Positions 1-31,759 of a stretch of DNA of 32,000 nt are shown in pieces; position 1 is the stretch's first letter; the number at the start of each line of letters is the position of its first letter. The stretch comes from Candidatus Electrothrix yaqonensis. Its GTDB lineage: Bacteria; Desulfobacterota; Desulfobulbia; Desulfobulbales; Desulfobulbaceae. The notes under the pieces are model-generated. The model did no database searches and was not told the origin of the DNA. It saw only the letters and a list, made by a program, of their open reading frames with translations. Location: NCBI GenBank assembly GCA_047651235.1, contig CP178758.1, positions 2,310,001-2,342,000 of the forward strand, written 5' to 3'. The translations under genes were made by a program, and so were the position numbers.

Positions 1-338
1 CTGATCCTGCCGGGAGTGGCGTCGGCAACGAATGGGTGTCTTTGATCAACCTCGGCAGTGAAGCAGTCGATCTGACCGGATGGTCACTGAGCGACAACTC
101 GGATAAACGCCTGGTAATTGATACCGTGGTCAGTGATTCTGCTTCCCGTGTGCTTGCTCCGGGAAAGTCAATCGTCGTAAAAGGATTGGAACCGTTGCAG
201 TTGGCAAACAAGGGTGACATCATCAAACTCTATGATGCTGACGGAGCACGGATCGACTGGGTTAATTACACAAAGCCTATGGTCCGTAGCGGGAAAGCGG
301 TGGTTTTCCTGTCACCGCGCAATACCTTGGATGTATAG
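1..338 (+). CDS. Lamin-tail-domain (LTD) protein, C-terminal part; 5' end lies outside the window
   Basis: Frame 3 is open from base 3. DPAGSGVGNEWVSLINLGSEAVDLTGWSLSD...IIKLYDADGARIDWVNY matches the LTD signature. TAG stop at 336-338. Confidence 0.6.
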   Translation, partial: DPAGSGVGNEWVSLINLGSEAVDLTGWSLSDNSDKRLVIDTVVSDSASRVLAPGKSIVVKGLEPLQLANKGDIIKLYDADGARIDWVNYTKPMVRSGKAVVFLSPRNTLDV

Positions 339-354
339 CTGAAGCAGAGCCGCA

Positions 355-389
355 GGCCGGGTGAAGCATTATGGGAACCCGGCCTTTTG
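355..389 (+). terminator. Rho-independent terminator after the LTD gene
   Basis: GGCCGGGT (355-362) pairs with ACCCGGCC (377-384) around a 14-nt loop, followed by TTTT. Confidence 0.55.
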
Positions 390-564
390 CGCCTCTATAG
401 TTGTCAGCACTTCCCATGGATCGTATTTTCCTTTTCTCTCACTGCCTGTTCGTTCTCTTCTTGTCAACAGCGCAAGAAATGACTATTGTTCTGATTACGA
501 AATAATCTACAGAGGAAAACGAACCAAACAGCCCCTGATCGCCAGCGGCGATACTGTCCGAACA

Positions 565-1011
565 ATGAAGATCGTCTGTAAAAATAAAAAGGCCTTCCAT
601 GATTATCATATTGATAAAACTATGGAGGCTGGCATGGTGCTGACCGGGCCGGAGGTAAAATCCCTGCGTGCCGGTCGGGCCAATATCAAGGACGGTTATG
701 CAAGAATGAAGGACGGGGAGGTGTTTCTCTATAATATCCACATTTCCCCGTATGCCTTTGCCGCCGATGCCGCTGATCCGCTGCGGGTGCGCAAGCTGCT
801 CCTGCACCGCCGGGAAATACGCAAGCTGATCGGCAAGCTGAATGAAAAAGGGGTTGCGCTTATTCCGCTCAAGATATACTTTATACATAACGGCAAGGCA
901 AAAGTGGAACTCGGCCTTGCTCGCGGCAAGAAACTCTATGATAAGCGCGCCGCCTTAAAAGAAAAGCAATCAAAACGTGATGTCCAGCGTTCATTGCGTC
1001 AACAGTATTAA
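565..1011 (+). CDS. smpB: SsrA-binding protein SmpB
   Basis: [16 protein letters not shown]...[24 protein letters not shown]...[11 protein letters not shown] is canonical SmpB. The ATG at 565 is preferred over the ORF-track start at 361, because the upstream part contains the LTD terminator and has no SmpB similarity. The tmRNA gene follows 8 nt downstream. Confidence 0.95.
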
Positions 1012-1018
1012 TTGTTAT

Positions 1019-1380
1019 GGGGGTGAAACGGATTCGACGGGGATATGTAAGCTCAGCGTTGCATGTCGAGTGTTCTGTCAGCTCGTAAAAATGATGGAAT
1101 TGTAAATATAATCGCAGACGATTATAACTACGCACTGGCAGCGTAAGCTGCTGTGCCGCTTTCTCGGTCCGCGCCCGTAAGGCCGGAGCAAAGCGTCGAT
1201 TCTTCGGGCTGGTCTAACCGATGTGCCTCTCATTGGAAAGACGAGAATTTAACAGGCTGGCATTCGGCAATCTGCTGTTTCGGGTGAGAGCCGGGTGCGA
1301 GATTTTTACCCGGAACTAAACATGTAGAGACGTGAGGGGAGTATTTTCGGACCCGGGTTCAACTCCCGGCACCTCCACCA
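1019..1380 (+). ncRNA. ssrA: tmRNA (SsrA)
   Basis: 5' GGGGGTGAAACGGATTCGACGGGG and 3' GGACCCGGGTTCAACTCCCGGCACCTCCACCA (tRNA-like T-arm/acceptor plus CCA). The internal tag ORF at 1114-1146 encodes ADDYNYALAA*. Adjacent to smpB. Confidence 0.95.
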
Positions 1381-1391
1381 AAAAAAGAAAA

Positions 1392-1425
1392 GCCCGCAAC
1401 CTGACACGGTCTGCGGGTTTTTTTT
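1392..1425 (+). terminator. Rho-independent terminator of ssrA
   Basis: CCCGCA (1393-1398) pairs with TGCGGG (1412-1417), followed by T8 (1418-1425). Confidence 0.8.
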
Positions 1426-1553
1426 ATGTCCGCTGCAGTCCGGGGCGTCCGTTGAGAGCCACGAAAAATTACAGTACCAAACGAAATTTCAGAAAGAGGT
1501 ACTTGTTCTGGTTAGTGAACAGTTGCATTCATTCCCTATGAATTGAAAATTCC

Positions 1554-2381
1554 ATGAGCAGACAAGGCGCAAAATCAGATCAGGGAGATAACTACCAGCG
1601 GTTCATAGCCCAGCACTGGATAATCCGCCTGATCAGTGATGACGAGATTGACTTTATTCAGGCCCAATCTACCGGTCTGCCCGGCGTGGATGAAAAAATC
1701 ACGGTTGATGACATCGTTATCTGCTATAAAAACGGGCAGCGGCGGCATATTCAGGCTAAGAAAAATCAGTCGGCAAATCGTTGCTGGAACCTGACCGATC
1801 TAAAGGACGAGCTGCCTAAGATACTGGAGCAGCTCGAAAGCTCTCCGCAGACTCTGGTTGCACTCTACTCTCGTACCCCGTTCGGCGAGTTCGCAAGTCT
1901 TGTCGAAGCAGGCAGAGAATATCCTGATTTTGCCGCATTCAAGCACGAGACCGGTAAAAATCTCCAAGATGCCTTGGCTTCGCTTGCCGCCTGTTGGGAT
2001 TTGTCTCTTGCAGACACCTTTTCTCTGCTGCGAAGAATAGAGATCGGTCCGCATCACAGCTTTGCGGACTGGCCTCGCATCAATCTTCAAGATTTGCAAA
2101 AGGTTGTTGCTCGTGCCGATACAGCCCTCGCCATTCTCGGCGGAGACTATCTCAATTCTCATCAATCCAAGCTGCTCTCGCAATCATTCACGATAACCCT
2201 TGAGGATGTGCTTGCTTATCTCCGCAAGCACGGCTGCCTGCGGGTGCCTTTATATGAAGAAGCGGAAGTACTTGAGCAATTTCAGCGAACATCAGCTATC
2301 GGGCGGAACGCCTGGCAGCGCAAAGTCAGCGGCCAGAAAATACAACGCCCGGAATTCAATCAGGTTATACAGCACCTATAA
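1554..2381 (+). CDS. N-terminal module of a nuclease-STAND NTPase: DUF4297/Cap4-type (PD-(D/E)xK-like) nuclease domain. It ends at an in-frame TAA (see findings).
   Basis: GDNYQRFIAQHWIIRLI...ITVDDIVICYKNGQRRHIQAKKN shows the G-x-x-YQ ... DD-hhh ... hQxK pattern of Cap4/Mrr-like effector nucleases. Same reading frame as the ORF at 2448-6071. Confidence 0.6.
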   Translation: MSRQGAKSDQGDNYQRFIAQHWIIRLISDDEIDFIQAQSTGLPGVDEKITVDDIVICYKNGQRRHIQAKKNQSANRCWNLTDLKDELPKILEQLESSPQTLVALYSRTPFGEFASLVEAGREYPDFAAFKHETGKNLQDALASLAACWDLSLADTFSLLRRIEIGPHHSFADWPRINLQDLQKVVARADTALAILGGDYLNSHQSKLLSQSFTITLEDVLAYLRKHGCLRVPLYEEAEVLEQFQRTSAIGRNAWQRKVSGQKIQRPEFNQVIQHL

Positions 2382-2447
2382 GAGGGTGCCGCCACAATTC
2401 TGATCACAGACCGACCCGGCAGCGGCAAAACCTGTCTGCTGCTTGAT

Positions 2448-5400
2448 TTGGCCGATCATATTGAAGCTGATGATCGTTACGACCTCCTGTTCATCAAGGG
2501 CGACCGCTTTATCAAAGAAAGTAGCACCATTAAGCTGCCTAAAAATATTCCCGGACTCTGTGCCCGTTTATCGGAAAAACGACGCGTTGTTGTTCTTCTT
2601 GATTCTCTGGATGTCTTGTCTATGAACCGTGAGCACGGCGCACTGGAGAGTTTTCTGGGATTGATTGATCAGTTACAACTTCTCCCCGGCGTAACGGTAA
2701 TAGCAGCCTGTCGTTCCTTTGACCTTCACTACGATTCACTACTTCGAGATAGATCTTGGCAGGAAACAGTTTCTTTAACCGACTTCGATTACGAGAAAAT
2801 CGTTTTACCGCTACTCAAAGAATGGAATGTCAATGAAAACGAGCTAGAGGCCCCTCTTCAAAAGCTTCTCCGGCTACCACAAAATCTGCGACTTTTTGAA
2901 ACCGTAGCCCGGCGCGGCGGGCCGTATAATATCCGCTCCGTTCATGAGCTGCATGATGCCTATCTTGAGGAAGCGGTTCAGAAAAATTATCTGCTGGGCG
3001 ATGCCGCCATGCAGATGCTGCGCGACTTGGCAGACAAGTTGCTTCAGGAACGGGAGCAATGGACTACACCGGCATCCTTTCCTGTGGCAGAAGAGCTTCG
3101 TCGTGCTCTTATAAGTTACGGCGTGCTGCATGAAGATGGGCTAGGCAGGATAGGTTTCGGTCACCAGACTTTGCTGGATAATCTGGCGGCCAAGTCCGCA
3201 TTTCATCGTGGGCAAACGCTGGCCGATTTCATCACATCACATCCACCCTTTCCGTTCATTCGTCCCGCTGTCCGTTCTTTTGCCTTTCATCTCCGGGCAG
3301 CTTCTGCCAAAAAATTCAGGCGGCAGATATGGTCGGCCCTCACTGATTCAGACATGGCCTATCATTTCAAGCGGCTGCTGGCAGAATCCCTGATTGAAAT
3401 TATTCCTGATGCGGATGACAAGTCGCTGATCAACCGCCTGATGCGGAAGGAACCTGAACTGTTCCGGCGTTTCTTCTGGCGACTTAACAACGACGCATGG
3501 TTCTGTTGGCTAACTGAGCATTGGCTGCCGAATCTCGGTTCTGTACAGGAGGACAAGGAATGGTATGCCCTTTTTGCCTCAAAACTGGGACAATGGCAGA
3601 ACGCCTTTCCGGAAGAGATATTGGCTCTTTGGCAACGGGCTTTTGCGGAAGAATGGGATGAGAAGAGCAATCTTGTCTGGAGGGCTGCGGTCAGTCTGGA
3701 TAAGTTTAAATATTGGCAAACCAGCGGTATTGATTCTCTGTTAGAGCTACTACTGCGTGAACACTTCGATAACACTCATTTTCTCGGCAAGGCAATCAGT
3801 CAGTACGTTGCAGCCACCGGCCAAGGTGATGATCTGCTCTGGCAATTCATCACCAAAGACCTGAGCAGCGAGGATTTGACCAAATGGGATTTAGGCAAGA
3901 AACTGCACTGTGATGAGTACGACTTCCACCAGAAGGATTTCCTTGAGCAGCGGATGCTTACCTCGGAAGATCTGCTGGACCTAGCTCTCAATGATCTGCA
4001 AAAATGGGCGGATGCCGGAATCAGTGATTATGACAGGAAAAGAGGCCGCCGACCGTATTCGGTCTTGCTTCATTGCACCAGTTGGCAGCTACGGCACGAA
4101 GAAGACGAAATCTCACACCATGACAATTTGTCGATACTGTTTCAAGTTATTGAACAAGCACTCAAGCATCACTCAGAAAACAATACAGCATGGTGGCAGA
4201 AAAACGAGCCGCAGCTCAGGCAATCCTGGGAAGAGTCTATTATCTATCTGCTTCTGCTGGCCTATCAGGAAAACATAGAAGCCAATATAGCCGGAATTAC
4301 CGCCCTGCTTTCCGATCAAGAATTGTTGAGCGATGGGCAACTGGAACATGAATTGGGTGAACTGGCAGGAGCATCTTTTTATCTGTTCAATGATTTAAAT
4401 CAAGAGCTTTTTCAACGAACTGTCCTTAGTCTGTACGATGATGAAGACTGGGGAGAAGAGCAATGGATACAGCAAAAAAAATACGATTACTTAATCTGGA
4501 TTCCGGCTGTATTTCGCCTGCCAGAGGTTCAGTACCTTATTGAGCAGTATCAATCCGTTCAATTTGTTATAGGTTGTCCTCTACCTACGCCCCAAGTTAG
4601 TTTTCAATCAATAGACAACGAACCAATTGCTCCTTTGAAGCAGCTGCTCCAGTTAAGTGATACGCAGCTCTATCGACTACTCTCATACTTCGACATTCTC
4701 TCTGATGACGAAGCCAGCGCTCATGTTGGCAAAAAAAACAGCAAACATGACGTTTATATAAGGATGAGACGGTGGAGTCGTGTTGAGCAGGTACTTTCCG
4801 AAGCTGCCGCCTATGACCCGCTACGCTATTTTGCTCTCCTACCGGAATTTGAACGCCAAGGATTGAGCGCAAGCTATGCTGTCAGTATTTTGCAAGGAAT
4901 TGCCAATCATTTGCGCTATCGTTTTGGCAACCTGAGACCATCTGACAAAGACTGGCAGCCAGTCGAGCCAGCTCCTGATGTTGATATTCTTGCTGAAATC
5001 CTGCTCAATACCGTTGAACGATTTGATCCCGTCTGGCAGGACGGCTATGCCATAAGCCGAATCATTAAAGCCTGCTGCGAAGTGGTTGAAGACACCATTT
5101 CAGCAGAACGTCTTGTTTTTCTCCTCTTCCGTCTGTGCAAACATCCTGACCCGGAAAAAATAGAACAGCGGATTGTGAGACAAGATAAGAAGGAAATCAC
5201 TTCCTATGATCTCCAGCATGATGCCATAAATCGCGTTCGGGGCGTGGCGGCTGGTGCGGCAATGACCTTATGCAACCGCCTGCTGGAAAAGGAGATTGAA
5301 CCGCCGGAGCTACTCTTTCCTCTGCTGCGCCATTATGCACTTGATCCTGTCTTGTCCGTTCGCGCCGCCCTGATGAACGGTCTGCCGTTTCTCACCCATA

Positions 5401-6071
5401 AACGCCACGCTTGGGGCTGGCAGCTCTTTGAGGACATCTTCCGGGATGCTCCGACACTCCTCTGGCCCCTCGCAGAACGCCATCTCTACCATCAATACCA
5501 TAATCACTTCGACAAAGTAGCTCCCTGCCTTGACCGCATACAGCGGGAGGCCCCGGCTGAAGCTGGCGAGGCTTGGGGACGGATCGCAACTCTTTCCTCC
5601 TTGGCCCGGCACCTGCCACAGGACAGCCTCTTTACCCAACTCGAAAAAGCAAATCAGCCGAAACAATGGAAAGGTGCTGCACAGGTCTTTGCCGCCAATA
5701 TCGAACGGCACAACGACGCCTGCATGAAAGGATTGCGCAGAATTCTTGAGCGGGAAAAAATCGACAAAGAGGCCTTGAGTTCTGTCAGCAATGCCTTCAA
5801 TCTTGAGAAGAACGGGAAGCTGCTGGATGCTGACTTTGCTGTTCTGTTCATCAGGAAAATGCAGGTTGACAGCAATAGATTTCACGACTCCCAACTCTTC
5901 GATTGGATTGCCTGGCTTGCACAAAAAGATGCGGAGACTTCCATTGAAGTCTGTGAATGCCTGCTGGAAAAATTTGAAAGCAAAAATGCAAGAGCCCTGC
6001 TTTCTGCGCTGACCAGCATTCTCCGGTGGGTGCGATTACAAGTGCGGTTTTATCAATTACGGGATGCATGA
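2448..6071 (+). CDS. STAND/NACHT-like P-loop NTPase with a >900-aa helical (HEAT/TPR-like) repeat region. This is the body of the disrupted Avs-like gene. The last 15 codons (6027-6071) are IS-derived.
   Basis: Walker A (RPGSGKTCLLL) lies at 2412-2444, upstream of the TTG at 2448 and directly after the TAA at 2379-2381. Walker B is RRVVVLLDSLDVL, followed by VTVIAACRSFD. The C-terminus is helical and includes the HEAT-like LLRHYALDPVLSVRAALMNGL. Confidence 0.7.
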   Translation: MADHIEADDRYDLLFIKGDRFIKESSTIKLPKNIPGLCARLSEKRRVVVLLDSLDVLSMNREHGALESFLGLIDQLQLLPGVTVIAACRSFDLHYDSLLRDRSWQETVSLTDFDYEKIVLPLLKEWNVNENELEAPLQKLLRLPQNLRLFETVARRGGPYNIRSVHELHDAYLEEAVQKNYLLGDAAMQMLRDLADKLLQEREQWTTPASFPVAEELRRALISYGVLHEDGLGRIGFGHQTLLDNLAAKSAFHRGQTLADFITSHPPFPFIRPAVRSFAFHLRAASAKKFRRQIWSALTDSDMAYHFKRLLAESLIEIIPDADDKSLINRLMRKEPELFRRFFWRLNNDAWFCWLTEHWLPNLGSVQEDKEWYALFASKLGQWQNAFPEEILALWQRAFAEEWDEKSNLVWRAAVSLDKFKYWQTSGIDSLLELLLREHFDNTHFLGKAISQYVAATGQGDDLLWQFITKDLSSEDLTKWDLGKKLHCDEYDFHQKDFLEQRMLTSEDLLDLALNDLQKWADAGISDYDRKRGRRPYSVLLHCTSWQLRHEEDEISHHDNLSILFQVIEQALKHHSENNTAWWQKNEPQLRQSWEESIIYLLLLAYQENIEANIAGITALLSDQELLSDGQLEHELGELAGASFYLFNDLNQELFQRTVLSLYDDEDWGEEQWIQQKKYDYLIWIPAVFRLPEVQYLIEQYQSVQFVIGCPLPTPQVSFQSIDNEPIAPLKQLLQLSDTQLYRLLSYFDILSDDEASAHVGKKNSKHDVYIRMRRWSRVEQVLSEAAAYDPLRYFALLPEFERQGLSASYAVSILQGIANHLRYRFGNLRPSDKDWQPVEPAPDVDILAEILLNTVERFDPVWQDGYAISRIIKACCEVVEDTISAERLVFLLFRLCKHPDPEKIEQRIVRQDKKEITSYDLQHDAINRVRGVAAGAAMTLCNRLLEKEIEPPELLFPLLRHYALDPVLSVRAALMNGLPFLTHKRHAWGWQLFEDIFRDAPTLLWPLAERHLYHQYHNHFDKVAPCLDRIQREAPAEAGEAWGRIATLSSLARHLPQDSLFTQLEKANQPKQWKGAAQVFAANIERHNDACMKGLRRILEREKIDKEALSSVSNAFNLEKNGKLLDADFAVLFIRKMQVDSNRFHDSQLFDWIAWLAQKDAETSIEVCECLLEKFESKNARALLSALTSILRWVRLQVRFYQLRDA
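6028..6050 (+). repeat. Left terminal inverted repeat of the IS
   Basis: GGGTGCGATTACAAGTGCGGTTT. Its reverse complement occurs at 7506-7528 with one mismatch. Confidence 0.85.
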
Positions 6072-6173
6072 GAGCGTATTTTTCTGTTACTTTGATTTCT
6101 TTGAGAAAGAAACAGCAAGTAATCAGGATGCTGTGTTGTCCGTTCGTCTAATATTATCCCGGAGAAGATATTT

Positions 6174-7497
6174 ATGTCCTCACTGTCACAGGAAGATAAG
6201 GAATTGCTCAATCAATTGAACCGTCAGCCAAATCTGAAAACGCGTATTCAAGCTATTCTTTCTATAGCCGGTGATGACGGAGACGGGATTGTAAAAGCTG
6301 ATGAGGCCGAAAGTCGGGTCATTGAGGAAGTTCGCCGGATGGGTAATGAGGTGCTCAGCGGATGGGCGGAGAGTCGAATTGAAAAATCCGGGGCAGCTCT
6401 TCCGACGGACGGTAATTGTACCCGTAGCGGTAAAAAAAACACATTGGCACACGACGTTCGGGATAATTCACGTAGTTGAGCAGGAGTACAGACAGCCGGG
6501 AAAACGGTACCGGCCGTTCAGCCGAAGTGCCGGAATAACCTGCCGATGCTGCTCGCTACCTCTGCAGCGTGCCGTAACAGATTTCGGGGCAGACCATTCC
6601 TTTGGTCGGGTTCCTGAAAAACTGAAGGAACATTATGGGATAACATTACCGGTAAGTACTGTCCGAAATATCACGGAGACTCACGCCCGACACATACATG
6701 AAAGACGTCGATAGGAGAGAATTGAAGAATATCCGTCTATAAAGGGACGGGACTTCGTTATTGCCGAGACGGACGGCAGCATGGTTCCGATTGTCCTGAC
6801 GGATACAGATGCCAGGGACCGGCGCAAAGGTAAAAAGCACAGCTGGAAAGAAGCACGTCTGAGTATAGCTCATGTTCTCGGTGAAAGGACGCTTAAATTC
6901 GGAGTTGCATTTCAGGAAAACGTTGACGAGTCGGGAAAGGTTCTCTTTGATTGCGCCTGCCGTGCGGGATTCGGTCGGGGTACATCTCTGCATTCAGTGG
7001 GTGACGGAGCAACGTGGATTTCCGGGCAGGTGAAAAAACAGTTCGGTTCACAGGGACATTACCTTGTCGATTTTTATCATGTTTGTGAATACCTGGAGGC
7101 TGCTGCACCGGCATGTTCCGGGAAAGACGGAAAAGGATCATGGGGTAAGCAGCAGAAAGAGCGCCTGAAAAAGGGACAGGAAAAAAAACTGATCGAAGCA
7201 TTGAAGCCTCATCTTGAGCCGGAAAAGACAGAAGATCAAAATGCACCTGTCCGCTGCTGCCTGCGTTACCTGAGCAACCGTCCGGGGCAGTTCGACTATC
7301 CCGATGCTCAACAGCTTGGTTTACCTATCGGTTCTGGAGAAATAGAAAGTGCGCACCGGTATGTCATCCAGGAACGTCTGAAAATAGCCGGCGCATGGTG
7401 GACACCGGAAAATGCCCGAATCATGCTTTCCCTGAGAGTTGACCGTGCGGACGGATACTGGGATAAATATTGGGAGAATATAAGCTGGGCAGCGTAA
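6174..7497 (+). pseudogene. ISKra4-family transposase, disrupted by a frameshift in an A8 run plus an in-frame TAG
   Basis: The three ORF pieces join cleanly. ...CTRSGKK (frame 0) meets KKTHWHTTFGIIHVVEQEY (frame +1) at the A8 run 6432-6439. ...HIHERRR-TAG(6712-6714)-ERIEEYPSIKGRDFVIAETDGSMVPIV continues in frame. GDGATWI, LVDFYHVCEYL and GSGEIESAHRYVIQERLK..GAWW are ISKra4-type motifs. Confidence 0.8.
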
Positions 7498-7505
7498 GGT
7501 GTCAG

Positions 7506-7528
7506 AAACCGCACTTTTAATCGCACCC
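7506..7528 (-). repeat. Right terminal inverted repeat of the IS
   Basis: AAACCGCACTTTTAATCGCACCC is the reverse complement of the left repeat, 22/23 identical. Confidence 0.85.
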
Positions 7529-7536
7529 TTCTCCGG

Positions 7537-7656
7537 GAAGCTGACGAAAGCGAGGATGAAGCAATGATCAATCGGGCCGTACGGCTACAGGATCAATTTT
7601 TACGGATGGGCCTGCACGGAATGGAAAAATTTCTGGAGCAGGCGGCGACGGTGTGA
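7537..7656 (+). pseudogene. Displaced original 3' end (39 codons + TGA) of the STAND gene, cut off by the IS
   Basis: Removing the IS and one TSD copy joins ...ALTSILR (ending at 6026) in frame to EADESEDEAMINRAVRLQDQFLRMGLHGMEKFLEQAATV*, with the stop at 7654-7656. Confidence 0.7.
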
Positions 7657-7788: not shown

Positions 7789-7822
7789 TGACAATTTATT
7801 GTAATATGAGAATAAATTGTCA
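7789..7822. repeat. Perfect 12-bp-arm palindrome with a 10-nt spacer
   Basis: TGACAATTTATT (7789-7800), spacer gtaatatgag, AATAAATTGTCA (7811-7822), followed by T6. The left arm overlaps a TTGACA hexamer (7788-7793). Confidence 0.5.
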
Positions 7823-7852
7823 TTTTTTAAATTTTGCATAAGGAGAATGACA

Positions 7853-8054
7853 GTGCTGAACGCGTGGGAGGATGAAGATAACCACGTTGAAAGTTTCGTA
7901 GAAGCCTTATCCCGCATGCCTGATCGACGTGACAATCACGGTAAAAAAAGAGCTTTTCCCAGAAGTTATAATAGCCGGTTTTGTTTCGGCGACTTTAGTC
8001 GGTCGATCGACAGTATCGGGGATTGCCGAGTTGACCGGAATTTTCCTGGTATAA
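7853..8054 (+). pseudogene. N-terminal remnant of an ISAs1-family (H-repeat-like) transposase, frameshifted
   Basis: VLNAWEDEDNHVESFVEALSRMPDRRDNHGKK, then a shift at the A7 run (7952-7958) into ELFPEVIIAGFVSATLVGRSTVSGIAELTG. This resembles the DDE_Tnp_1-associated N-terminus (..DPR...K....eil.ia..A.l.G..s...Ia.). No DDE domain follows. Confidence 0.4.
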
Positions 8055-8102
8055 TGGCCGCTTGCGGTTGATTATTGCGGGAAAATTTCGAGTCCAACGT
8101 TT

Positions 8103-8482: not shown

Positions 8483-8800
8483 ATGAGAAAAAAACGAAAT
8501 ATATTGTCCCGCTGTCTGGGCAGAACCAAAAGATGCGGTCGGCTGCCCGTTGCCGAGGTCCGTCCCCTTTCGGAATGCTGCGGCTGCTCCAGGGTCAGGG
8601 TCTGCAGGATCAGCGGAGACCGCAACGCATGCGGCCGGATGGCCTGTCTGGGCATCCTTCCCGGCACAGAAGTGGAACTGCTCTGTCCAATGCGGGGACG
8701 ACGAGGGAGACGGCGGCAGCAGTGCATGGTCAGGATCAACGGAGGCGTACTGAGCCTGGACGGGATGACAGCCCGGAATATTCTGGTACAGCCTGTCTGA
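8483..8800 (+). CDS. FeoA-domain protein, atypical Arg/Cys-rich; start uncertain
   Basis: PLSECCGCSRVRVCRISGDRNACGRMACLGILPGTEVELL...MVRINGGVLSLDGMTARNILVQP fits the FeoA SH3-like pattern (L..l..G..v.v..i......rL..lGi.pG..v.......v...g....l....A..I.V). All three forward frames are open here, so the call rests on this motif. Confidence 0.5.
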   Translation: MRKKRNILSRCLGRTKRCGRLPVAEVRPLSECCGCSRVRVCRISGDRNACGRMACLGILPGTEVELLCPMRGRRGRRRQQCMVRINGGVLSLDGMTARNILVQPV

Positions 8801-8999: not shown

Positions 9000-9097
9000 G
9001 AACTTACCTTAAAAGGGTGCATTTTCTGCTGTACGAATCAAAATCAGCGGATGAGCAGGCTGTCGCCCTCCTTATTCGTATTCACGGAGAAATAATT

Positions 9098-9277
9098 ATG
9101 CAGAATATTATAGTATTCTTTATTCTTCTTGCGGCCTGCCTGTATGTGGGCGGCAGACTGTTCAGGTCATTCCGTTCAGGAGCATCCTCCTGCAGCTGTT
9201 CAGGTTGCGACGCAGGCTGCTGCGGCAGTGCAGGGAGTTCATCCCGGAAGAAAGACCCAAAGGAGGGCGGACAATGA
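9098..9277 (+). CDS. FeoB-associated Cys-rich small membrane protein
   Basis: MQNIIVFFILLAACLYVGGRLF (one TM helix) followed by SSCSCSGCDAGCCGS. GGAGA lies 7 nt upstream. The stop overlaps the feoA ATG (ATGA). Confidence 0.75.
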   Translation: MQNIIVFFILLAACLYVGGRLFRSFRSGASSCSCSGCDAGCCGSAGSSSRKKDPKEGGQ

Positions 9278-9513
9278 ACCTGCGCAAATTGCAGAGCGGT
9301 GAATCCGGCGTTATTGCCGCTGTCAAAATTGGAGGTTCCCTTGGGCTGCGGATCAGGGAGATGGGGATTGTACCGGGCACCAAAATTACCGTGACAGGCC
9401 GTGCGCCGCTCTACGACCCGGTCAAGCTGCGCATCAATGGACAAACCCTGACTCTGCGCAACAGCGAAGCAGATTATATTGAAGTAAATACAGGAGAAGG
9501 AGCAGTAAAGTGA
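9274..9513 (+). CDS. feoA: Ferrous iron transport protein A
   Basis: MNLRKLQSGESGVIAAVKIGGSLGLRIREMGIVPGTKITVTGRAPLYDPVKLRINGQTLTLRNSEADYIEV. AGGAGGG RBS. 4-nt overlap with feoB (GTGA). Confidence 0.9.
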   Translation: MNLRKLQSGESGVIAAVKIGGSLGLRIREMGIVPGTKITVTGRAPLYDPVKLRINGQTLTLRNSEADYIEVNTGEGAVK

Positions 9514-11823: not shown

Positions 11824-13251
11824 TCAGATTGCCACAACCTCCTTAACCTCTTCCCCAAAGGCATGAATCTGGGCCATGATACCGTTCATGGTAAAACGAC
11901 CCATGTCAATAGCCATGGTCGGACAGCGGGCAGCACAGACACCGCAACCCTTGCAGGAGGCGGTGATAGTGCGGGCCTTGCGTTTGCCGTTGTCATCCTT
12001 ATAGATATTAATGGCCTTGTACGGACAGAAGCTCTCGCAGGCCCCGCAGCCGATGCATTGCTCCGCATCGATCTGAGAGACAATGGGTGCAGGTGTTACT
12101 GAGCCCTTAGCCAGGGGATGACAGGCCCGCCCTGCTGCAGCCTGCGCCTGAGACACGGTTTCATCCATCGAACGTGGTGAATGGGCCAGGCCGCAGACAT
12201 AGGTACCGTCCACCGGCAGATCCACTGGCTGAAGCTTGACATGGGCCTCCAGAAAAAACTTCTCTGCTGTGACCGGCACCTTGAGCATTTTGGCTAATGC
12301 AGTCGGATCTTCCGGCACAATGCCGGTGGATAAAGCGAGTAAATCAGCCTCCACCTCCAGCTCCTCGCCGAGCAGCGGGTCAAAGTAGCGCACTGTAACT
12401 GTATCCCCTTTCACGCTGACCACCGGTTTGCGCTCCAGGCTGTAGCGGGTGAAGATCACGCCGAGCTGGCGCGCCTTGCGGTAGTCGTCCTCCATGAAGC
12501 CGTAGGAACGCATGTCACGGTAGAGGACGATGATCTGCATTTCCGGCTGCAGGGCCTTGAGGCGCAGAGCGTTCTTCAAAGCCTGTCCACAGCAGACCCG
12601 GCTGCAATAGGTCAGGTCTTCGTCACGGGAGCCGACACATTGAATCATCACTGCCTGCCGGGCTACCTTCAGGCTGTCCTGTTCCTCGACCAAGCGCTGC
12701 TCCAGCTCAAGCTGAGTGACGATCTTCGGCGACTGGCCGTAGCAATACTGGGTCGGTTGATACGGATTACCGCCCGTAGCCAGAACCGTCACCCCGTGAT
12801 GAACCAGCTCACTTGCCCCTTTGCCCTCCACCGTGGTGGTGAAGTTGCCCACATAACCAGAACAGGCTGTTACCTGAGCCTCGGTATGGATAGTGATTTT
12901 CGGATGAGAGTTCACTCGCTCGATCACCGCCTGCACGGCCTGTCGAGGATCATTACCGTGCCGGTCCGCAGTGAGCAGCATGGCCTTGCCGCCGAGCTGC
13001 GTTCCCCGCTCAATCAGAGCGACATCAAAGCCCTGATCAGCAATAGCCAGCGCAGCGGTCATGCCTGCCAGGCCGCCGCCGATCACCAGGGCCGCCGGGG
13101 TAACCGGGAGCTGCATCTCCTCCAGCGCGGTCAGGTGACAAGCCTTAGCAACCGCCATCCGCACTGCATCCTTGGCCTTCTGTGTGGCCCGCTCCGGCTC
13201 ATGTATATATATGTACCCAAGAGCACTGGTCACGGATATTGGCCATCTCAA
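11824..13251 (-). CDS. hdrA: Tandem HdrA-like flavoprotein, 3' portion (remainder of HdrA unit 2). True continuation begins at about 13203, not at the ATG at 13251.
   Basis: HEPERATQKAKDAVRMAVAKA...ALVIGGGLAGMTAALAIADQG...CSRVCCGQA...CIGCGACESFCP/CKGCGVCAARCP. HEPERATQKAKD normally follows CSWVH directly in HdrA. Confidence 0.9.
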   Translation of the reverse strand: MRWPISVTSALGYIYIHEPERATQKAKDAVRMAVAKACHLTALEEMQLPVTPAALVIGGGLAGMTAALAIADQGFDVALIERGTQLGGKAMLLTADRHGNDPRQAVQAVIERVNSHPKITIHTEAQVTACSGYVGNFTTTVEGKGASELVHHGVTVLATGGNPYQPTQYCYGQSPKIVTQLELEQRLVEEQDSLKVARQAVMIQCVGSRDEDLTYCSRVCCGQALKNALRLKALQPEMQIIVLYRDMRSYGFMEDDYRKARQLGVIFTRYSLERKPVVSVKGDTVTVRYFDPLLGEELEVEADLLALSTGIVPEDPTALAKMLKVPVTAEKFFLEAHVKLQPVDLPVDGTYVCGLAHSPRSMDETVSQAQAAAGRACHPLAKGSVTPAPIVSQIDAEQCIGCGACESFCPYKAINIYKDDNGKRKARTITASCKGCGVCAARCPTMAIDMGRFTMNGIMAQIHAFGEEVKEVVAI

Positions 13252-14896
13252 AGAGCGAACGATTCAGCCCGGCCTCGCGCAGGGTGGCCTGAAAAAGCGG
13301 CTCATGGGTACGCGGGGTGCAGGCCGCCACCACCAGCCGGTTGAGCTTGTGCTCCTGAATGGTCTCGGTCAGCACCCTTTGCGCATCCTGCGAACAGGAA
13401 TACATGTTGGCCGAGGAGTATGCCACATTGGGCAGGGTCTTGGCATACTCAGCCACTGCCGGTACATTGACCACGCCGCCGATATTGATGCCGCAATGAC
13501 AGACAAATACGCCGATCCTCGGCTCTTCCTGACTGATTTCGCGCTCGTCCGGGAAGACCGCCTTGACTGTTTCGCTGCTTCGGGCCGGGGCAAGCTGACC
13601 CGCACAAAGAGCTGCCGCCCAGCCGCCTTGAGTAACGGAATCAGGAATATCCTTGGGCCCCTGAAAGGCACCAATCACGTAAACACCCGGCCTGATGGTT
13701 TCCAGTGGAGTATAGGTATCGGTCTCGGCAAAGAGGTACTCGTTCAGGTCGATGCCCGCAGCCTGAGCCAGCTTGTCCGCTTCCTCCGGTGCCTCAAGCC
13801 CCTGGGAGAGCACCACCATATCGAATTTCTCATAATGATGCTTGCCGTCTTCTGTGGCCCAGGTCAGGAGCAGACCACCGCCAAAGACATCCTCCACTCG
13901 GGGCGGACGGGCATAGATCACTCGGAAATTCCCTTCCTCAACTGCCCGCTGACGTGCTGCATCAAAGCCCTTACCATGAGTACGCACATCCATATAAAAG
14001 AGGGTGATCTCACAGTCTGGATCATGCTCACGGGCCAAGGTGGCCTGCTTGATAGCGTACATGCAGCAGACCGAGGAGCAGTAATTATTACCACAGGTCT
14101 CGTCACGGGAGCCGATGCATTGAAGAAAGGCTATTTTCTTGGGGTGCTTGCGGTCAGAAATACGCAGAATCTCGCCGCCGGTGGGGCCGGAGGCGCACAT
14201 CAACCGCTCATGCTCAAAGGCCGTGACCACATCCTGGAATTTACCCAGACCGTACTTGGCCATGACCTCATCACTCACCCGACCAAATCCCGGAGCAAGG
14301 ATCACCGCTCCAACGGAAATCTCCAGTTCCTTCTCTGTATCGTCAAAACGAATCGCCCCGGCCTGACAGGCCACTGCGCAGAGACCGCAGGAATCGTGAT
14401 TCAGCTTGAGGCAGGCTTTGGCATCAATATAATAGGAGGTCGGCACGGCCTGGGAATAGTCAATATGCGCGGCATGATTAATCTCCATATTTTCATTGAA
14501 ATCGTTGCCGATCTGCTTCAGGCAGTAGAGCGTACACTGGCCACAGCCGGTGCAGACCTCTTCATCAATATAGCGCGGTTGTTTTTTGATGGTAGCCGTG
14601 AAATTACCCGGCGCTCCTTGCAGATCAACCAGCTCGGCCAGGGTGAGGATTTCTATATTCGGATCGCGGCCCGCCTCAACCAGCTTGGGTGCGAGGATGC
14701 AGAGAGAACAGTCGTTGGTGGGAAAGGTCTTGTCCAGGCGGGCCATGACTCCGCCGATGGCCCCGGATTTCTCAATCAGATAGACTTTATAGCCCAGTTC
14801 AGTGAGATCAAGGGCTGTCTGGACACCGGCCACGCCACCGCCGATCACCATGACGGCCCCGTTGATCTTGTCGGCTGTTTTCGCAATTACGGTCAT
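13199..14896 (-). CDS. hdrA: Tandem HdrA-like flavoprotein, 5' portion: HdrA unit 1 plus the N-terminal Cys domain of unit 2. It ends at a frameshift.
   Basis: VMVIGGGVAGVQTALDL..LDKTFPTNDCSLCILAPK, CTGCGQC/CGLCAVAC ferredoxin insert, SSVCCMYA, then IGVFVCHCGINIGGVV...FEMANIRDQCSWVH. Start taken at the ATG at 14896 (AAGGAG 6 nt upstream) rather than 14923. Confidence 0.9.
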   Translation of the reverse strand: MTVIAKTADKINGAVMVIGGGVAGVQTALDLTELGYKVYLIEKSGAIGGVMARLDKTFPTNDCSLCILAPKLVEAGRDPNIEILTLAELVDLQGAPGNFTATIKKQPRYIDEEVCTGCGQCTLYCLKQIGNDFNENMEINHAAHIDYSQAVPTSYYIDAKACLKLNHDSCGLCAVACQAGAIRFDDTEKELEISVGAVILAPGFGRVSDEVMAKYGLGKFQDVVTAFEHERLMCASGPTGGEILRISDRKHPKKIAFLQCIGSRDETCGNNYCSSVCCMYAIKQATLAREHDPDCEITLFYMDVRTHGKGFDAARQRAVEEGNFRVIYARPPRVEDVFGGGLLLTWATEDGKHHYEKFDMVVLSQGLEAPEEADKLAQAAGIDLNEYLFAETDTYTPLETIRPGVYVIGAFQGPKDIPDSVTQGGWAAALCAGQLAPARSSETVKAVFPDEREISQEEPRIGVFVCHCGINIGGVVNVPAVAEYAKTLPNVAYSSANMYSCSQDAQRVLTETIQEHKLNRLVVAACTPRTHEPLFQATLREAGLNRSLFEMANIRDQCSWVHIYT

Positions 14897-15160
14897 GAAG
14901 AGCTCCTTCGTACGTATCGGCACAGTTCCCTTGCCATGACCAGGACGTAGTTACCCTGTGCATGGTGAGGCCATCATGCCGAAGAAATGAAATTGCTCAG
15001 ACGGCCCTTGTCCGTCTGATCTGTCGTAGAAGGATACGTCGATCGAACAGGTCGAAAAAGATCAGGAGAGGAGGCAAGCCGCTGAGCTTATTTGCCGACC
15101 CAGACCGGGTCGGATGCCGTTACGGCAGCTTCATGTGTAATGATGGGTCTTTAACATGGA
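14897..15160 (-). promoter_or_regulatory. hdrA leader/promoter region, paralogous to the mvhD leader, with two conserved hairpins
   Basis: Hairpins at 15095-15113 (CCGACCC/GGGTCGG) and 14997-15019 (CAGACGG/CCGTCTG). The blocks ATCATTAC..CACATG, AGCGGCT and CTCCTCT are shared with 24207-24470. Confidence 0.5.
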
Positions 15161-15326: not shown

Positions 15327-16478
15327 CTAAAATGATGCTTCCCTGATCAATTTACGGTAACATCTTTCGCGTAAGATATGGCAAGCGCGACGAGGAATTT
15401 CGTGCCACGGATGTTTTTGATACTCGGCCTCAAGTTCGGAGTAATCTGGATTTGTTGCCAAGTAGAGTTCTATATGTCGCAATTTCTCGACTGCCTCTTC
15501 AGATTGAGCTATCACTCCAAGCACCGAGAGTTCATGCTCAATTAAGAGCGGGAATAGAATAGAGGCAAAAGCAAGATGATAGAATTCCGACCACATGAAC
15601 CGCGATGTGTTGGTTCGTTTCACTCCATGAGCTGACACCCCCCGCATATCACAAAACTCCTTTGCCCAGCATTCTATAAGGCGGGCCGACTTAGAACGCT
15701 TTGCATGCCAAGCTGCTTCATATTCAGTATGCTCAATATCAGGTGCCTTTACCGCCTCAAGCTTCGCCTTGATAGCGCGACAGAAGTTGCCGCTGTGCTG
15801 ATCAATTTTGAATAGTCGTTCAAAAGCCGACTTTATCATTATTAACTCGACATGTTCTGGAACGTTAGGAGAGTCGGTGTTTGCCAAAACAAACTCTTCA
15901 ATGGCTTCTATGATGTTATCTGGAATTTCCGGTGTCAACAAGGCATCCAACAGCCTTGCATCTACATTTAGATTATGATGGGAACTTACGTGGTACGGTC
16001 GAGTGAAAGTAAATTTCCTGGACGACCACACATGACTGGCTCCCCCGTCTCGCCTACGTGTTGCAAAAGCGAAATGTCCTGTGGAGCCTTCTTGATACTT
16101 CTGTACGACTAGCGAGTAGGTGTCGTAGTTGCAATAATTGAAGCTCTGCGAGAATAACGGACGGCACGCTAAAGCTGAAAACCCGATTAGCGATCTGATC
16201 TTAAATAGGGCCTTGACGACTGATGTCGGGTCTTGCCCTGTATACCAGTCGTCGATTTCAATGAGAGTTGCACTATATATTAAATGATCAGCGTGATCCG
16301 CATATGCGGCCATCACCCCGTCTATATCTGAAAGGCTTGCATATGGCAGGTTGTCTGGAAATTTCCCCCTGCTCCATGGTATTAGGCGAAGACGACCGAT
16401 TTCGGTACGTTCGTGCAATGGTACCCACGGCAGAAAGGCAAGACCCTTAATTGTATTTTCTCGGCAATCTTCGGACAT
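15327..16478 (-). CDS. Uncharacterised 383-aa protein with a C-terminal Rx4H (HEPN-like) motif; candidate RNase/abortive-infection-type effector
   Basis: Long uninterrupted ORF in AT-richer DNA. WAKEFCDMRGVSAHGVKR contains R279-x4-H284 followed by G (15627-15644), the hRxxxAHG form common in HEPN domains. No other family recognised. No obvious SD. Confidence 0.6.
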   Translation of the reverse strand: MSEDCRENTIKGLAFLPWVPLHERTEIGRLRLIPWSRGKFPDNLPYASLSDIDGVMAAYADHADHLIYSATLIEIDDWYTGQDPTSVVKALFKIRSLIGFSALACRPLFSQSFNYCNYDTYSLVVQKYQEGSTGHFAFATRRRDGGASHVWSSRKFTFTRPYHVSSHHNLNVDARLLDALLTPEIPDNIIEAIEEFVLANTDSPNVPEHVELIMIKSAFERLFKIDQHSGNFCRAIKAKLEAVKAPDIEHTEYEAAWHAKRSKSARLIECWAKEFCDMRGVSAHGVKRTNTSRFMWSEFYHLAFASILFPLLIEHELSVLGVIAQSEEAVEKLRHIELYLATNPDYSELEAEYQKHPWHEIPRRACHILRERCYRKLIREASF

Positions 16479-17487: not shown

Positions 17488-17865
17488 TCACGCAGAAATA
17501 CTTTTCTCCGTTGCAACGAGCGGCTTCAGCCTGAAGATCGCCCGAGCTTCCGGTCGGTGCATGGCCTGCCACAAGTCCCAATCTTGTTGCAGGCCCAACC
17601 AGAAGTCAGCCGACATACCTACCACTTGCGACAGCCGCAAGGCAGTGTCCGGTGTGACTGCGGACTTGCCTTTGATGATGTTGTTCAGACGGGAATAGGG
17701 GATATCCAAGTGTCGGGCCAGCTCGGTTCTGGTGAGGTCGAGCGGCTTGAGGAATTCTTCCGCAAGCATCTCGCCTGGATGGGTCGGCGGGCGATGTTTG
17801 GGCAGCCGTCGTCTGACAGTTCGTTTAGTGGTAATCTGTGATTTCGACTTCGTAGGCATAGTCAT
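17488..17865 (-). CDS. higA: HigA-family antitoxin (HTH/XRE)
   Basis: THPGEMLAEEFLKPLDLTRTELARHLDIPYSRLNNIIKGKSAVTPDTALRLSQVVGMSADFWLGLQQDWDLWQA. Overlaps the higB 3' end. Confidence 0.9.
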   Translation of the reverse strand: MTMPTKSKSQITTKRTVRRRLPKHRPPTHPGEMLAEEFLKPLDLTRTELARHLDIPYSRLNNIIKGKSAVTPDTALRLSQVVGMSADFWLGLQQDWDLWQAMHRPEARAIFRLKPLVATEKSISA

Positions 17866-18271: not shown

Positions 18272-18766
18272 TTATGATGTCTCACCTGCTAACTGTAAAG
18301 CAGCCTGATACAGCCGATCATCTATCCTGAAGTCCACGTCAATCAAGCGGTTGAGGAGGGACTGCACGTCAGGGATAATCCCTGCTTTTTTCGCAATCAC
18401 GATCACGCCGATGGTTCCGCATAAAGCAATACCCAAGGCCTTCGCACATTTCCGTGCAGCCAGATCATCAACTACAGCCTGATATTCCGGGTGATGGTAA
18501 CTCCAGGAGAGTACCGCACTTTCACCGGCACCGAGATCCCATGCCGCAACAAGAGGTGTAACCGGTTCGATATCCTGTACCCATTGCCGACCGAATGTGG
18601 AAATCCAGTGTTTTGCGAGATCATCATCAGAGCCGTCGAGAATCTCCTGTTCAACGGCACGCGGAATGATCATCCGGTCACATGAATCCGGCAGCAGATG
18701 GGCATGCTCAATATTGGCAAGCGAGATAATAGGTGATGCGTTGACTGCCCACAGACGTTCAGGCAT
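18272..18766 (-). CDS. DUF3368 (PIN-like) putative toxin
   Basis: ...LGAGESAVLSW...AVVDDLAARKCAKALGIALCGTIGVIVIAKKAGII matches the DUF3368 pattern (GE.a.i.l......vilDD..aR..A..lgi...GtlGvl). 8-nt overlap with the upstream UPF0175 gene. Confidence 0.8.
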   Translation of the reverse strand: MPERLWAVNASPIISLANIEHAHLLPDSCDRMIIPRAVEQEILDGSDDDLAKHWISTFGRQWVQDIEPVTPLVAAWDLGAGESAVLSWSYHHPEYQAVVDDLAARKCAKALGIALCGTIGVIVIAKKAGIIPDVQSLLNRLIDVDFRIDDRLYQAALQLAGETS

Positions 18767-19013
18767 TCCCCACCTCTTTGGCTAAATCCTCCGGGGTGAT
18801 CTGATAGGGTGAGACATTGAACTGTCCCAAGGCCTTGAGGAATTGCGCCCGGCTGAGTCCGGCCAGTTCAGCTGCTTTGGCTTGCGAAATCTTCCCGATT
18901 TCGTACCATTTGACGGCTGCTGCCAGTCGTAGTTCCTGGACAAAGGCTGCTGGCGTGGTCCGGAGAATGGAAAACGATGCTTCCGGGAGATCTATTGTTA
19001 CATGGACTGACAT
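18759..19013 (-). CDS. UPF0175-family putative antitoxin
   Basis: MSVHVTIDLPEASFSILRTTPAAFVQELRLAAAVKWYEIGKISQAKAAELAGLSRAQFLKALGQFNVSPY. Start at the ATG at 19013 (AAGGAG upstream) rather than 19094. Confidence 0.8.
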   Translation of the reverse strand: MSVHVTIDLPEASFSILRTTPAAFVQELRLAAAVKWYEIGKISQAKAAELAGLSRAQFLKALGQFNVSPYQITPEDLAKEVGNA

Positions 19014-19176
19014 ACCTATACGCTCCTTTTTTTGTAAGGGGCTGTAATTTATCCATCCCCCTTGACTGTTGCGGCTGAACAGAGCGGCTTGCATCTTCTT
19101 TCCCTGCCCGCCTTATAATATCCTATCTCATCTTCTACAGAATGTATCTTGAAGTTTATGTGACTTGTTACATCCT

Positions 19177-23601: not shown

Positions 23602-24206
23602 GCAGCTTCCCCCCCAAGCAACGCTGTCAAATTCTTCTCGCACTTGGTTGCAACCAAGTCGGCAATGGCTGGTCGGGAGAAGTCACCACTCTTCATCATT
23701 GCCCTGCTCGCGCTGATCAAATTGGTGCGAATTTTTTTGTTCCGGGCCACCTCAGCAGCCAAGAGCAGCTTTTTGCGCAACTCCTCCTGATCCATGCCTT
23801 CCGCCTGTCCCAGCGGACCCAACTCAGTAGCCTGCTCGGTAAAGCGGGTGATGATCTTGACAAAGTTCGGGCCTTCCGCAGCCGAGGCCCAATCGATCAG
23901 AAAGCGGTCCTTGCTGATGCCGAGCCGCTCCAGGGTTTCATGCACTAGGGCAGCAGAGACCAGGGCATGGTAGTTGCCGTCAATATAATGGCATTCGCCA
24001 GGATGACAGCCGCCGACAAAAACGGCGTCCGCACCGTTGGCCAAGCCTTCGAGCGGAAAGGAAGGATCAAGCCGGCCAGTACACATCATCCGGACAACCC
24101 GCAGGCTGGGCGGATACTGATAACGGCCCACCCCTGCTGAATCGGCTGCGGTGTAGCAGCACCAATTACATAAGAAACCTAAAATTTTCGGTTGATAATC
24201 AGACAT
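23598..24206 (-). CDS. mvhD: MvhD/FlpD-like hydrogenase iron-sulfur subunit (Hdr-associated), with a C-terminal extension
   Basis: KILGFLCNWCCYTAADSAGVGRYQYPPSLRVVRMMCTGRLDPSFPLEGLANGADAVFVGGCHPGECHY. Confidence 0.85.
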   Translation of the reverse strand: MSDYQPKILGFLCNWCCYTAADSAGVGRYQYPPSLRVVRMMCTGRLDPSFPLEGLANGADAVFVGGCHPGECHYIDGNYHALVSAALVHETLERLGISKDRFLIDWASAAEGPNFVKIITRFTEQATELGPLGQAEGMDQEELRKKLLLAAEVARNKKIRTNLISASRAMMKSGDFSRPAIADLVATKCEKNLTALLGGEAA

Positions 24207-31339: not shown

Positions 31340-31759
31340 CGGAGGCAAGTGGACATCTCCCGCTACGATTGACTTTCCCGCTGTGCATAAAGATTCCGGC
31401 AAGACTTCATCAAAGGGCCGCTGAGCCTTTCGATAACGACGGTTTTTTATAACAACTCTACCCTGTGAAGTAAAGAGCAGAAGTAAAGAGCATTCCATTG
31501 CGGACCGCATGATGCAGTCGCCGAACAACTCGAACAACGTTCTGGAAAGCAACGTATGCGGACTTTGCAGAACAGAAGGAACAGCAGCTGTTCTCCGCTG
31601 ATCCTCTGAAGGCGCAGTAATCCAGGGCCCGCTGAACCGTATAATTTTCTTGACGTTCCGGCCAGAAAGAATGTAGACTATTGCAGACAAATAAATAGTT
31701 CTGTTTTCCTGTATCCTGCAATTATTACAAAATAATTTATCTTGCTGAGGACTTTTTTC

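Follow-up and report, generated by a model that had tools for sequence, protein, structure and literature searches.

Why does what looks like one gene, lying directly downstream of the transfer-messenger RNA (tmRNA) gene ssrA, appear as two open reading frames (ORFs)? The question is raised by the locus at positions 1554-7656 of a 32,000-nucleotide stretch of the genome of Candidatus Electrothrix yaqonensis YB6 (contig CP178758.1, positions 2,310,001 to 2,342,000), the whole of which is referred to below as the window. An initial annotation, made from the sequence alone, had proposed that the two ORFs are halves of a single gene encoding an antiviral STAND (signal transduction ATPases with numerous domains) protein, or Avs, divided by an in-frame TAA. 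Our analysis assigns the locus to avs7 and indicates, with a probability of about 0.9, that it was a single gene and is now a pseudogene, disabled by two independent lesions: this TAA and an insertion sequence (IS) in the 3' part.

The window belongs to a closed genome of 3,738,687 bp, assembled from Oxford Nanopore Technologies (ONT) R10.4.1 reads no shorter than 10 kb, with polishing by Racon and Pilon on Illumina data. As an independent check at the level of the raw reads, we used the Logan assemblies of runs SRR31704081 and SRR31704082, which originate from the same enrichment culture. Homologues were searched for in a collection of 5.8 billion proteins, which returned hundreds of matches, and the best 120 were considered. 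The coordinates of all features are collected in Table 1.

One reading frame with two interruptions

The ORFs 1554-2381 and 2448-6071 share a common frame, with one TAA between them (2379-2381); from 2382 to 6071 the frame is open. Upon retranslation, both the coordinates and the sequence agreed with the initial annotation, and translation across the TAA gave ...RPEFNQVIQHL, the stop, and then EGAATILITDRPGSGKTCLLLDLADHIE. From the stop to the TTG at 2448, the frame runs through 22 codons (positions 2382-2447), none of which is an ATG, GTG, or TTG, so any canonical start would come after the Walker A motif (GSGKT, residues 289-293, positions 2418-2432); the earlier observation of a P-loop without an upstream start thus holds. 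In GenBank, the upstream half is recorded as a hypothetical protein of 275 residues (XOF32539.1) and the downstream half as an 'AAA family ATPase' of 1222 residues (XOF35428.1), the latter starting at the ATC at 2403, two codons before the first glycine of the P-loop motif. Neither entry carries a pseudogene flag.

Nearly all of the best 120 matches were single proteins of about 1,500-1,570 residues that covered the restored query in full (100%). The closest, at 71-79% identity, were found in other cable bacteria (Ca. Electrothrix and Ca. Electronema), and the remaining relatives, at 37-52% identity, in Thiothrix, cyanobacteria, and Bacteroidota. The shorter matches were contig-truncated fragments in which the N-terminal Cap4 domain was still fused, and the only entry beginning just ahead of Walker A was the GenBank protein of the YB6 genome itself; apart from this one, none of the homologues examined was split at the TAA position or started near Walker A. 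The position of the TAA was read through as one ORF in all of the aligned full-length homologues (58 out of 58), in which it was occupied most often by glutamate (E 31, R 9, K 8, D 4, Q 2, S 2, T 1, C 1). In four cable-bacterial orthologues, the codon at this position was GAA (three sequences) or AAA (one sequence), so that the TAA is only one substitution away from sense. The orthologues are therefore not organised as two genes, an arrangement that would have argued against a single gene, and the proposed length of about 1,530 residues was recovered in the restored protein.

The TAA was also found in the raw-read assemblies. The SRR31704081 contig was 100% identical to the window over positions 1-6054, and the SRR31704082 contig over positions 1509-2604, the TAA being included in both; both contigs also encode the product of 275 residues. 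Since the same TAA occurs in two independent assemblies of raw reads, it is not a consensus error, and it is a real feature of the DNA of the YB6 culture. A reassignment of TAA throughout the genome was considered and rejected, since 6 of the window's 21 genes, including smpB, end in TAA.

The second interruption is an IS of the ISKra4 family. Its ends are 23-nt inverted repeats (6028-6050 and 7506-7528), one of which reads GGGTGCGATTACAAGTGCGGTTT and the other its complement, apart from one mismatch, and it is flanked by an 8-bp direct repeat, TTCTCCGG (6019-6026 and 7529-7536), which represents the target duplication. Within the element, the ORF 6301-6714 matched positions 71-164 and the ORF 6781-7497 positions 189-422 (E = 7e-45) of the ISKra4-family transposase profile NF033572 of NCBIfam, and the ORFs of the element also matched Pfam UPF0236. 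When the IS and one copy of the repeat were taken out, the sequence read ...SILREADESEDEAMINRAV..., as in the orthologues, and the restored C-terminus, ...LSALTSILREADESEDEAMINRAVRLQDQFLRMGLHGMEKFLEQAATV followed by the stop, agreed with the orthologue C-termini. The restored gene consists of 1,530 codons, the TAA being counted as one residue, and a TGA stop. As the genome stands, the last 39 residues of Avs7 are exchanged for 14 residues encoded by the IS, with loss of the C-terminal helix. The splice of 1554-6026 to 7537-7656 proposed in the initial annotation was thus correct, and its junction is explained by an IS with inverted repeats and an 8-bp duplication. The split had been ascribed to the TAA alone; its role was borne out, but the IS is a second, independent disruption.

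The transposase frame of this IS copy is itself broken, by a change of frame between the ORF 6174-6479 and the frame of the ORF beginning at 6301, near a run of eight A (6432-6439), and by an in-frame TAG (6712-6714) between the ORFs 6301-6714 and 6781-7497. Either mobilisation in trans or decay after insertion may account for this defective copy. The left IS junction was confirmed in the reads: the SRR31704081 contig ends 27 nt inside the element, which suggests that the genome contains several copies of the IS. A record look-up for the IS ORF 6781-7494, aimed at the number of IS copies, gave no entry.

Domains of the restored protein and its relation to Avs7

To name the family, we compared the restored sequence with the sequences of the PDB. 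The family profile matched chain 9n00_A (1523 residues) at 1178 bits over positions 1-1527, and the restored protein alone matched the same chain with a phmmer E-value of 1.2e-196 (query residues 1-1526, chain residues 1-1519). The C-terminal half alone, including the segment beyond the IS, aligned to residues 888-1519 of the 1523 (E = 3e-58). The entries 9N00, 9N01, and 9YIX are structures of Salmonella enterica Avs7 (SeAvs7), described by Lee et al. (bioRxiv preprint, January 2026; Nature, 29 July 2026; PMC13581612). As judged by this homology over the full length, the locus is a member of the avs7 family. The clade that the initial annotation had been unable to name is therefore Avs7, and the effector-NTPase-sensor layout that it had recognised is supported by the end-to-end match and by the domain folds described below.

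SeAvs7 begins with a Cap4 nuclease and continues with a STAND NTPase, which comprises a nucleotide-binding domain (NBD), a helical domain (HD1), and a winged-helix domain (WHD), and a bilobed tetratricopeptide repeat (TPR) sensor (PMC13581612). The sensor encloses the HK97-fold major capsid protein (MCP) from tailed phages, and EF-Tu is incorporated in the complex and enhances it. Exchange of ADP for ATP accompanies the assembly of an asymmetric tetramer, in which the Cap4 domains degrade double-stranded DNA (dsDNA), and binding of MCP brings a conserved helix at the C-terminus (residues 1511-1521) into a clash with the NBD, which is proposed to help release autoinhibition. Cap4 is both scaffolded and restrained by the covalently attached NTPase and C-lobe (PMC13581612).

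Residues 1-275 of SeAvs7, the N-terminal domain of which was resolved as Cap4, align to the product of the 5' fragment. An AlphaFold2 (AF2) model of residues 1-275 of the restored protein (predicted local distance difference test score, pLDDT, 83.9) had Avs3 as its best PDB match in Foldseek (8dgc, E = 2.3e-7), together with HamA (8zue, E = 5.8e-6) and LmuA (9hr5, E = 5.4e-5). Residues D52, D53, Q67, K69, K70, and N71 were invariant in the family alignment of 59 sequences; the codons of the D52/D53 pair lie at 1707-1712 and those of the Q67-x-K69 motif at 1752-1760. Residues 1-275 thus fit a Cap4-like fold of the PD-(D/E)xK type, and their D...(Q/E)xK active site is conserved. The Pfam profile Cap4_nuclease (PF14130, formerly DUF4297) gave no match to the restored protein at E ≤ 1, and was matched by one of 31 family relatives (E = 0.0056). 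Of the earlier Cap4/DUF4297 assignment, the nuclease fold was thus upheld by the model, the invariant residues, and the homology to SeAvs7; the DUF4297 profile itself was not matched.

In the NTPase module, Walker B (VVVLLDSLD) was found at residues 345-353 (2586-2612). The arginine of the AACRSFD motif (residues 384-390, positions 2703-2723) aligned with R395 of SeAvs7, and the histidine of FGHQTLLD (residues 535-542, positions 3156-3179) with H545; in SeAvs7, R395 contacts the gamma-phosphate of ATP and H545, in the WHD, contacts ADP (PMC13581612). The only above-threshold Pfam match of the restored protein was AAA (PF00004, E = 5e-8). NACHT (PF05729) scored 17.6 bits against a cut-off of 26.7, nSTAND_NTPase5 was also below threshold, and 6 of the 31 relatives matched NACHT at E ≤ 0.01. 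In Foldseek, the AF2 model of residues 277-640 (pLDDT 90.0) best matched Avs4 (E = 3e-10), NLRC4, NLRP3, and NOD2, with query-normalised TM-scores of up to 0.67. The similarity of the modelled module to NACHT-type NLRs is therefore strong despite the sub-threshold NACHT profile, and the call of a STAND NTPase with Walker A and B agrees with both these folds and the residue equivalents in SeAvs7.

Beyond the NTPase, the restored sequence aligned through the TPR sensor of SeAvs7, in accordance with the helical repeats noted earlier, and its tail was identical in style to those of the orthologues; in YB6 itself, the IS lies between the gene and the helix of this tail. From the alignment, the restored sensor is predicted to be a bilobed TPR sensor of the Avs7 type, with a conserved C-terminal helix of fixed length. 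The SeAvs7 positions Q999, D1003, K1044, H1048, and D1059, which contact EF-Tu, correspond to Q, E, R, Y, and D in the restored protein; of these five mutated contacts, two are thus identical, two conservatively replaced, and one different, which is suggestive at most.

Profile libraries and structure libraries were of less help in naming the family. Scans of the restored protein with PADLOC 2.0, as proposed initially, and with NCBIfam gave only insignificant P-loop matches; neither library includes an Avs7 model, that of PADLOC 2.0 dating from 2023, before Avs7 was described. Foldseek did not return the SeAvs7 entries from the PDB, in a library that ends in April 2026, and the link to Avs7 was therefore drawn from the sequence search.

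The restored protein resembles SeAvs7 in length and domain order, and the D...QxK motif, Walker A and B, and the equivalents of R395 and H545 are all kept. In other cable bacteria, the orthologues are located after tonB, after macB/ftsX, or after a gene of the isocitrate dehydrogenase family; given these unrelated loci, avs7 is a defence gene that is both solitary and mobile, in agreement with the published description of Avs7, and its varying position fits the horizontal transfer reported for the family. Unlike SeAvs7, the YB6 gene carries a nonsense codon and an IS insertion that make it a pseudogene. Its clade is a divergent one, with members in cable bacteria, Thiothrix, cyanobacteria, and Bacteroidota; they share 38-79% identity with the window protein and are clearly more distant from SeAvs7. 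The Avs3 and Avs4 proteins (SeAvs3, 8DGC; EcAvs4, 8DGF; Gao et al. 2022) share the logic of an effector, a STAND NTPase, and a TPR sensor. However, they were not matched in the PDB sequence search, they have other sensors and triggers (terminase and portal), and the Cap4 tetramer of SeAvs7 is arranged otherwise than the Avs3 tetramer (PMC13581612). The Avs7 sensor also occurs outside STAND proteins, in Dsr1 and others, which have the MCP-sensing sensor fold in common with Avs7 (PMC13581612) but are described as lacking the STAND NTPase and the Cap4 nuclease. The Cap4, LmuA, and HamA nucleases, which are effectors of CBASS, Lamassu, and Hachiman, are similar to the N-terminal domain in fold and in their D...QxK-type active site, but stand alone or occur in other architectures.

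Two relatives of cyanobacterial type, P0081 (1821 residues) and P0120 (1671 residues), exhibited an additional N-terminal caspase domain (Peptidase_C14) before Cap4. In P0120, the Cap4 domain was shortened and the QxK motif read IQTQD. An effector replacement may be under way in these proteins.

State of the gene and alternative explanations

All catalytic residues were kept in the restored protein. Among the 204 alignment columns that were at least 95% conserved, it departed from the family only once (E197G), the family median being 3 departures. As only one of the 204 conserved positions deviates and the rest of the gene is undecayed, the inactivation is recent on the evolutionary scale. The E197G change lies in a small patch (2140-2152, residues 196-200) that reads LGGDYLN versus LESFLN, with one extra codon, and aligns beside an extended loop (residues 199-215) that regulates the Cap4 domain of SeAvs7 (PMC13581612).

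In its intact form, the gene encoded a protein of 1,530 residues, in which a STAND NTPase (NBD-HD1-WHD) lay between a Cap4-type PD-(D/E)xK DNA nuclease at the N-terminus and, at the C-terminus, a TPR sensor predicted to be bilobed. By analogy with SeAvs7, this protein would have rested as an autoinhibited, ADP-bound monomer until the sensor clamped newly made phage MCP, probably together with host EF-Tu; ADP would then have been swapped for ATP, a tetramer would have formed via the NTPase and Cap4 domains, and dsDNA would have been degraded, aborting the infection. A single-base change of GAA or AAA to TAA has detached the nuclease from the NTPase, so that what follows lacks a canonical start ahead of Walker A, and the ISKra4-family insertion has replaced the last 39 residues, including the helix proposed to release autoinhibition. 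Each of these lesions alone should disable avs7. With both the TAA and the IS present, an intact single ORF is wanting, and the locus is therefore a pseudogene of the family and not a working member.

Several observations weigh against this reading. The fragments of avs7 may have residual activity, and ATT (2397), CTG (2400), and ATC (2403), the last of which is used by GenBank, are rare initiators allowed in translation table 11. Moreover, the two raw-read assemblies share one culture, in which a minority of intact alleles may persist, and MCP sensing and the use of EF-Tu are extrapolated from a relative of only moderate sequence similarity.

If the TAA were an assembly or polishing error, the gene would be broken only by the IS, and the protein would otherwise be short only of its last 39 residues. 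The first polishing scheme of the genome authors did corrupt the 16S sequence, after which the procedure was changed, and the absence of a pseudogene flag in GenBank also points in this direction. We nevertheless regard such an error as extremely unlikely: the Logan assemblies of both raw runs are identical to the window across the TAA, and the site lies outside a homopolymer (CACCTATAAGAGGG). ONT errors are mostly insertions and deletions. The other large genes of the window are intact and, even if the TAA were an error, the IS would still break the gene. A functional split was judged very unlikely. It would require low-level readthrough of the TAA or reinitiation at ATT, CTG, or ATC (2397-2405), either of which would yield a working NTPase-sensor, or an Avs7 in two pieces, or else a role of its own for the free Cap4 fragment of 275 residues, which might, for instance, throttle a toxic effector. 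Such a split is favoured by these non-canonical initiators, located 16-24 nt past the stop, by the GenBank model, by the otherwise undecayed coding sequence, and by the mention of 'split proteins' among the carriers of the sensor (PMC13581612). On the other side, a protein restarted at 2403 would be without the beta-strand ahead of the P-loop, none of the examined homologues is split at this point, and the IS separately removes the conserved C-terminal helix. TAA is here an ordinary terminator, and a TAA followed by G is not known as a leaky context. Finally, the dependence of the SeAvs7 Cap4 on the covalently attached NTPase and C-lobe, as scaffold and restraint, speaks against such a split.

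The 'AAA family ATPase' annotation implies a housekeeping AAA+ ATPase instead of a defence gene, and PF00004 as the sole above-threshold Pfam match, the lack of significant PADLOC 2.0 and NCBIfam matches, and the housekeeping nature of the flanks (smpB, ssrA, and the feo operon) are in line with it. Evidence from sequence and fold refutes this explanation as far as such evidence reaches, and it has next to no probability in view of the full-length homology to the experimentally validated SeAvs7, the STAND/NLR and Cap4 folds, and the presence of orthologues at unrelated loci in related genomes, some of them with an extra caspase effector. It is also conceivable that the locus is not simply dead, with intact and broken alleles (GAA or TAA, IS present or absent) coexisting in the clonal population of multicellular filaments as an on/off state of a suicidal nuclease, or with a regulatory or dominant-negative role for the free Cap4 fragment of 275 residues or for a reinitiated NTPase-sensor fragment; to this we assign an extremely small probability. 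A pseudogene with two independent lesions thus remains our preferred explanation.

Surroundings of the locus and meaning of the finding

Table 1. Features of the avs7 locus and its neighbours in the window, and genes following intact avs7 at orthologue loci.
Feature	Position	Strand	Remarks
smpB	361-1011		SmpB Pfam match
ssrA (tmRNA)	1019-1380	+	ARAGORN; tag peptide ADDYNYALAA; upstream neighbour of the avs7 pseudogene
avs7 5' fragment	1554-2381	+	275 codons and premature stop; Cap4-like PD-(D/E)xK nuclease domain (predicted) and linker into NTPase
Premature in-frame TAA	2379-2381	+	12 codons ahead of the Walker A glycine
STAND NTPase module	2382-3473	+	NBD, HD1, WHD, and start of sensor; residues 277-640
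Avs7-type bilobed TPR-like sensor	3474-6026	+	Reaches to the site of IS insertion; residues 641-1491 of the restored protein; from SeAvs7 and family alignments
15 IS-derived codons	6027-6071	+	WVRLQVRFYQLRDA and stop; now end the downstream ORF; P0003 ends in ...SILRWVRLQVRFYQLRDA
ISKra4-family IS, 1.5 kb	6028-7528	+	Inverted repeats, target duplication, transposase profile matches
Displaced avs7 3' end	7537-7656	+	Last 39 codons, EADESEDEAMINRAVRLQDQFLRMGLHGMEKFLEQAATV, and TGA; includes the conserved C-terminal helix
feoA	8483-8800		First of two FeoA genes
FeoB-associated Cys-rich membrane protein	9017-9277		Overlaps second feoA in another frame
feoA (second)	9205-9513
feoB	9510-11666
Genes 3' of intact avs7, orthologue locus L001	12627-13166
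Genes 3' of intact avs7, orthologue locus L003	6220-6747 and 6814-8367
Genes 3' of intact avs7, orthologue locus L002	7105-8661

The avs7 pseudogene sits between ssrA and the feo operon, the ATG at 1554 being 174 nt downstream of ssrA. The initial annotation had presented this position as a classic site of island integration. Only the adjacency itself was found: no integrase was present among the ORFs from ssrA to the feo operon, the last 26 nt of ssrA had no second copy within 3 mismatches and formed no such direct repeats in the window, and the GC content (0.45-0.52, versus 0.513 for the genome) exhibited no shift in composition. For synteny, 80 smpB loci were fetched from related genomes, and 64 Desulfobulbales loci were examined over 10 kb around smpB. 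Apart from the smpB region, neither Avs7, feo, the ISKra4 ORF, nor the other large ORFs of the window occurred within 10 kb at these 64 loci, and the comparison was therefore uninformative. The idea of an ssrA island was consequently left unsupported.

At three cable-bacterial orthologue loci (L001, L002, and L003), intact avs7 was followed by a DUF6155 gene, an AAA-ATPase_like/PDDEXK_9 gene, or both; neither was found in the YB6 window. A palindrome without a spacer (7789-7822), with 17-nt arms that are 88% complementary (TGACAATTTATTGTAAT/ATGAGAATAAATTGTCA), lies in the AT-rich stretch that separates the feo operon from the 3' end of avs7 and could be an operator site. A remnant of an ISAs1-type transposase, suspected around 7850-8060 from a motif, was dropped, as the frameshift-corrected peptide matched nothing in Pfam or NCBIfam.

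Further along the window, a gene within 19552-24206 (-) encodes a fusion of 1363 residues, in which a 2Fe-2S domain is joined to a GltD-like NAD(P)H flavoprotein, 4Fe-4S domains, and a molybdopterin oxidoreductase of the formate dehydrogenase type. It is preceded by an FlpD/MvhD-like gene (23598-24206, -), and two HdrA-like flavin/Fe-S proteins are encoded nearby, within 11824-14923. Small toxin-antitoxin-like and nuclease genes were observed at scattered sites, namely 18272-19094 (-), 17488-17865, 27574-27942, and 31058-31690, corresponding to a UPF0175 and DUF3368 (PIN-like) pair, an HTH_3 protein, a putative endonuclease of the Uma2 family, and a PIN7-domain protein. An ORF of 383 residues (15327-16478, -) had no match in Pfam or NCBIfam.

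No new mechanism is involved here. As structures, a trigger, and a mechanism have already been reported for the family and this copy is doubly disrupted, the finding is an annotation correction and not a discovery: XOF32539.1 and XOF35428.1 are the halves of one Avs7 pseudogene. For the biology of the cable bacteria, the phages of which are hardly known, it is a small data point on the turnover of defence genes. It indicates that Electrothrix and Electronema carry an Avs7 system, probably capsid-sensing by analogy with SeAvs7, and that one lineage has lost it recently by a point mutation and an IS.

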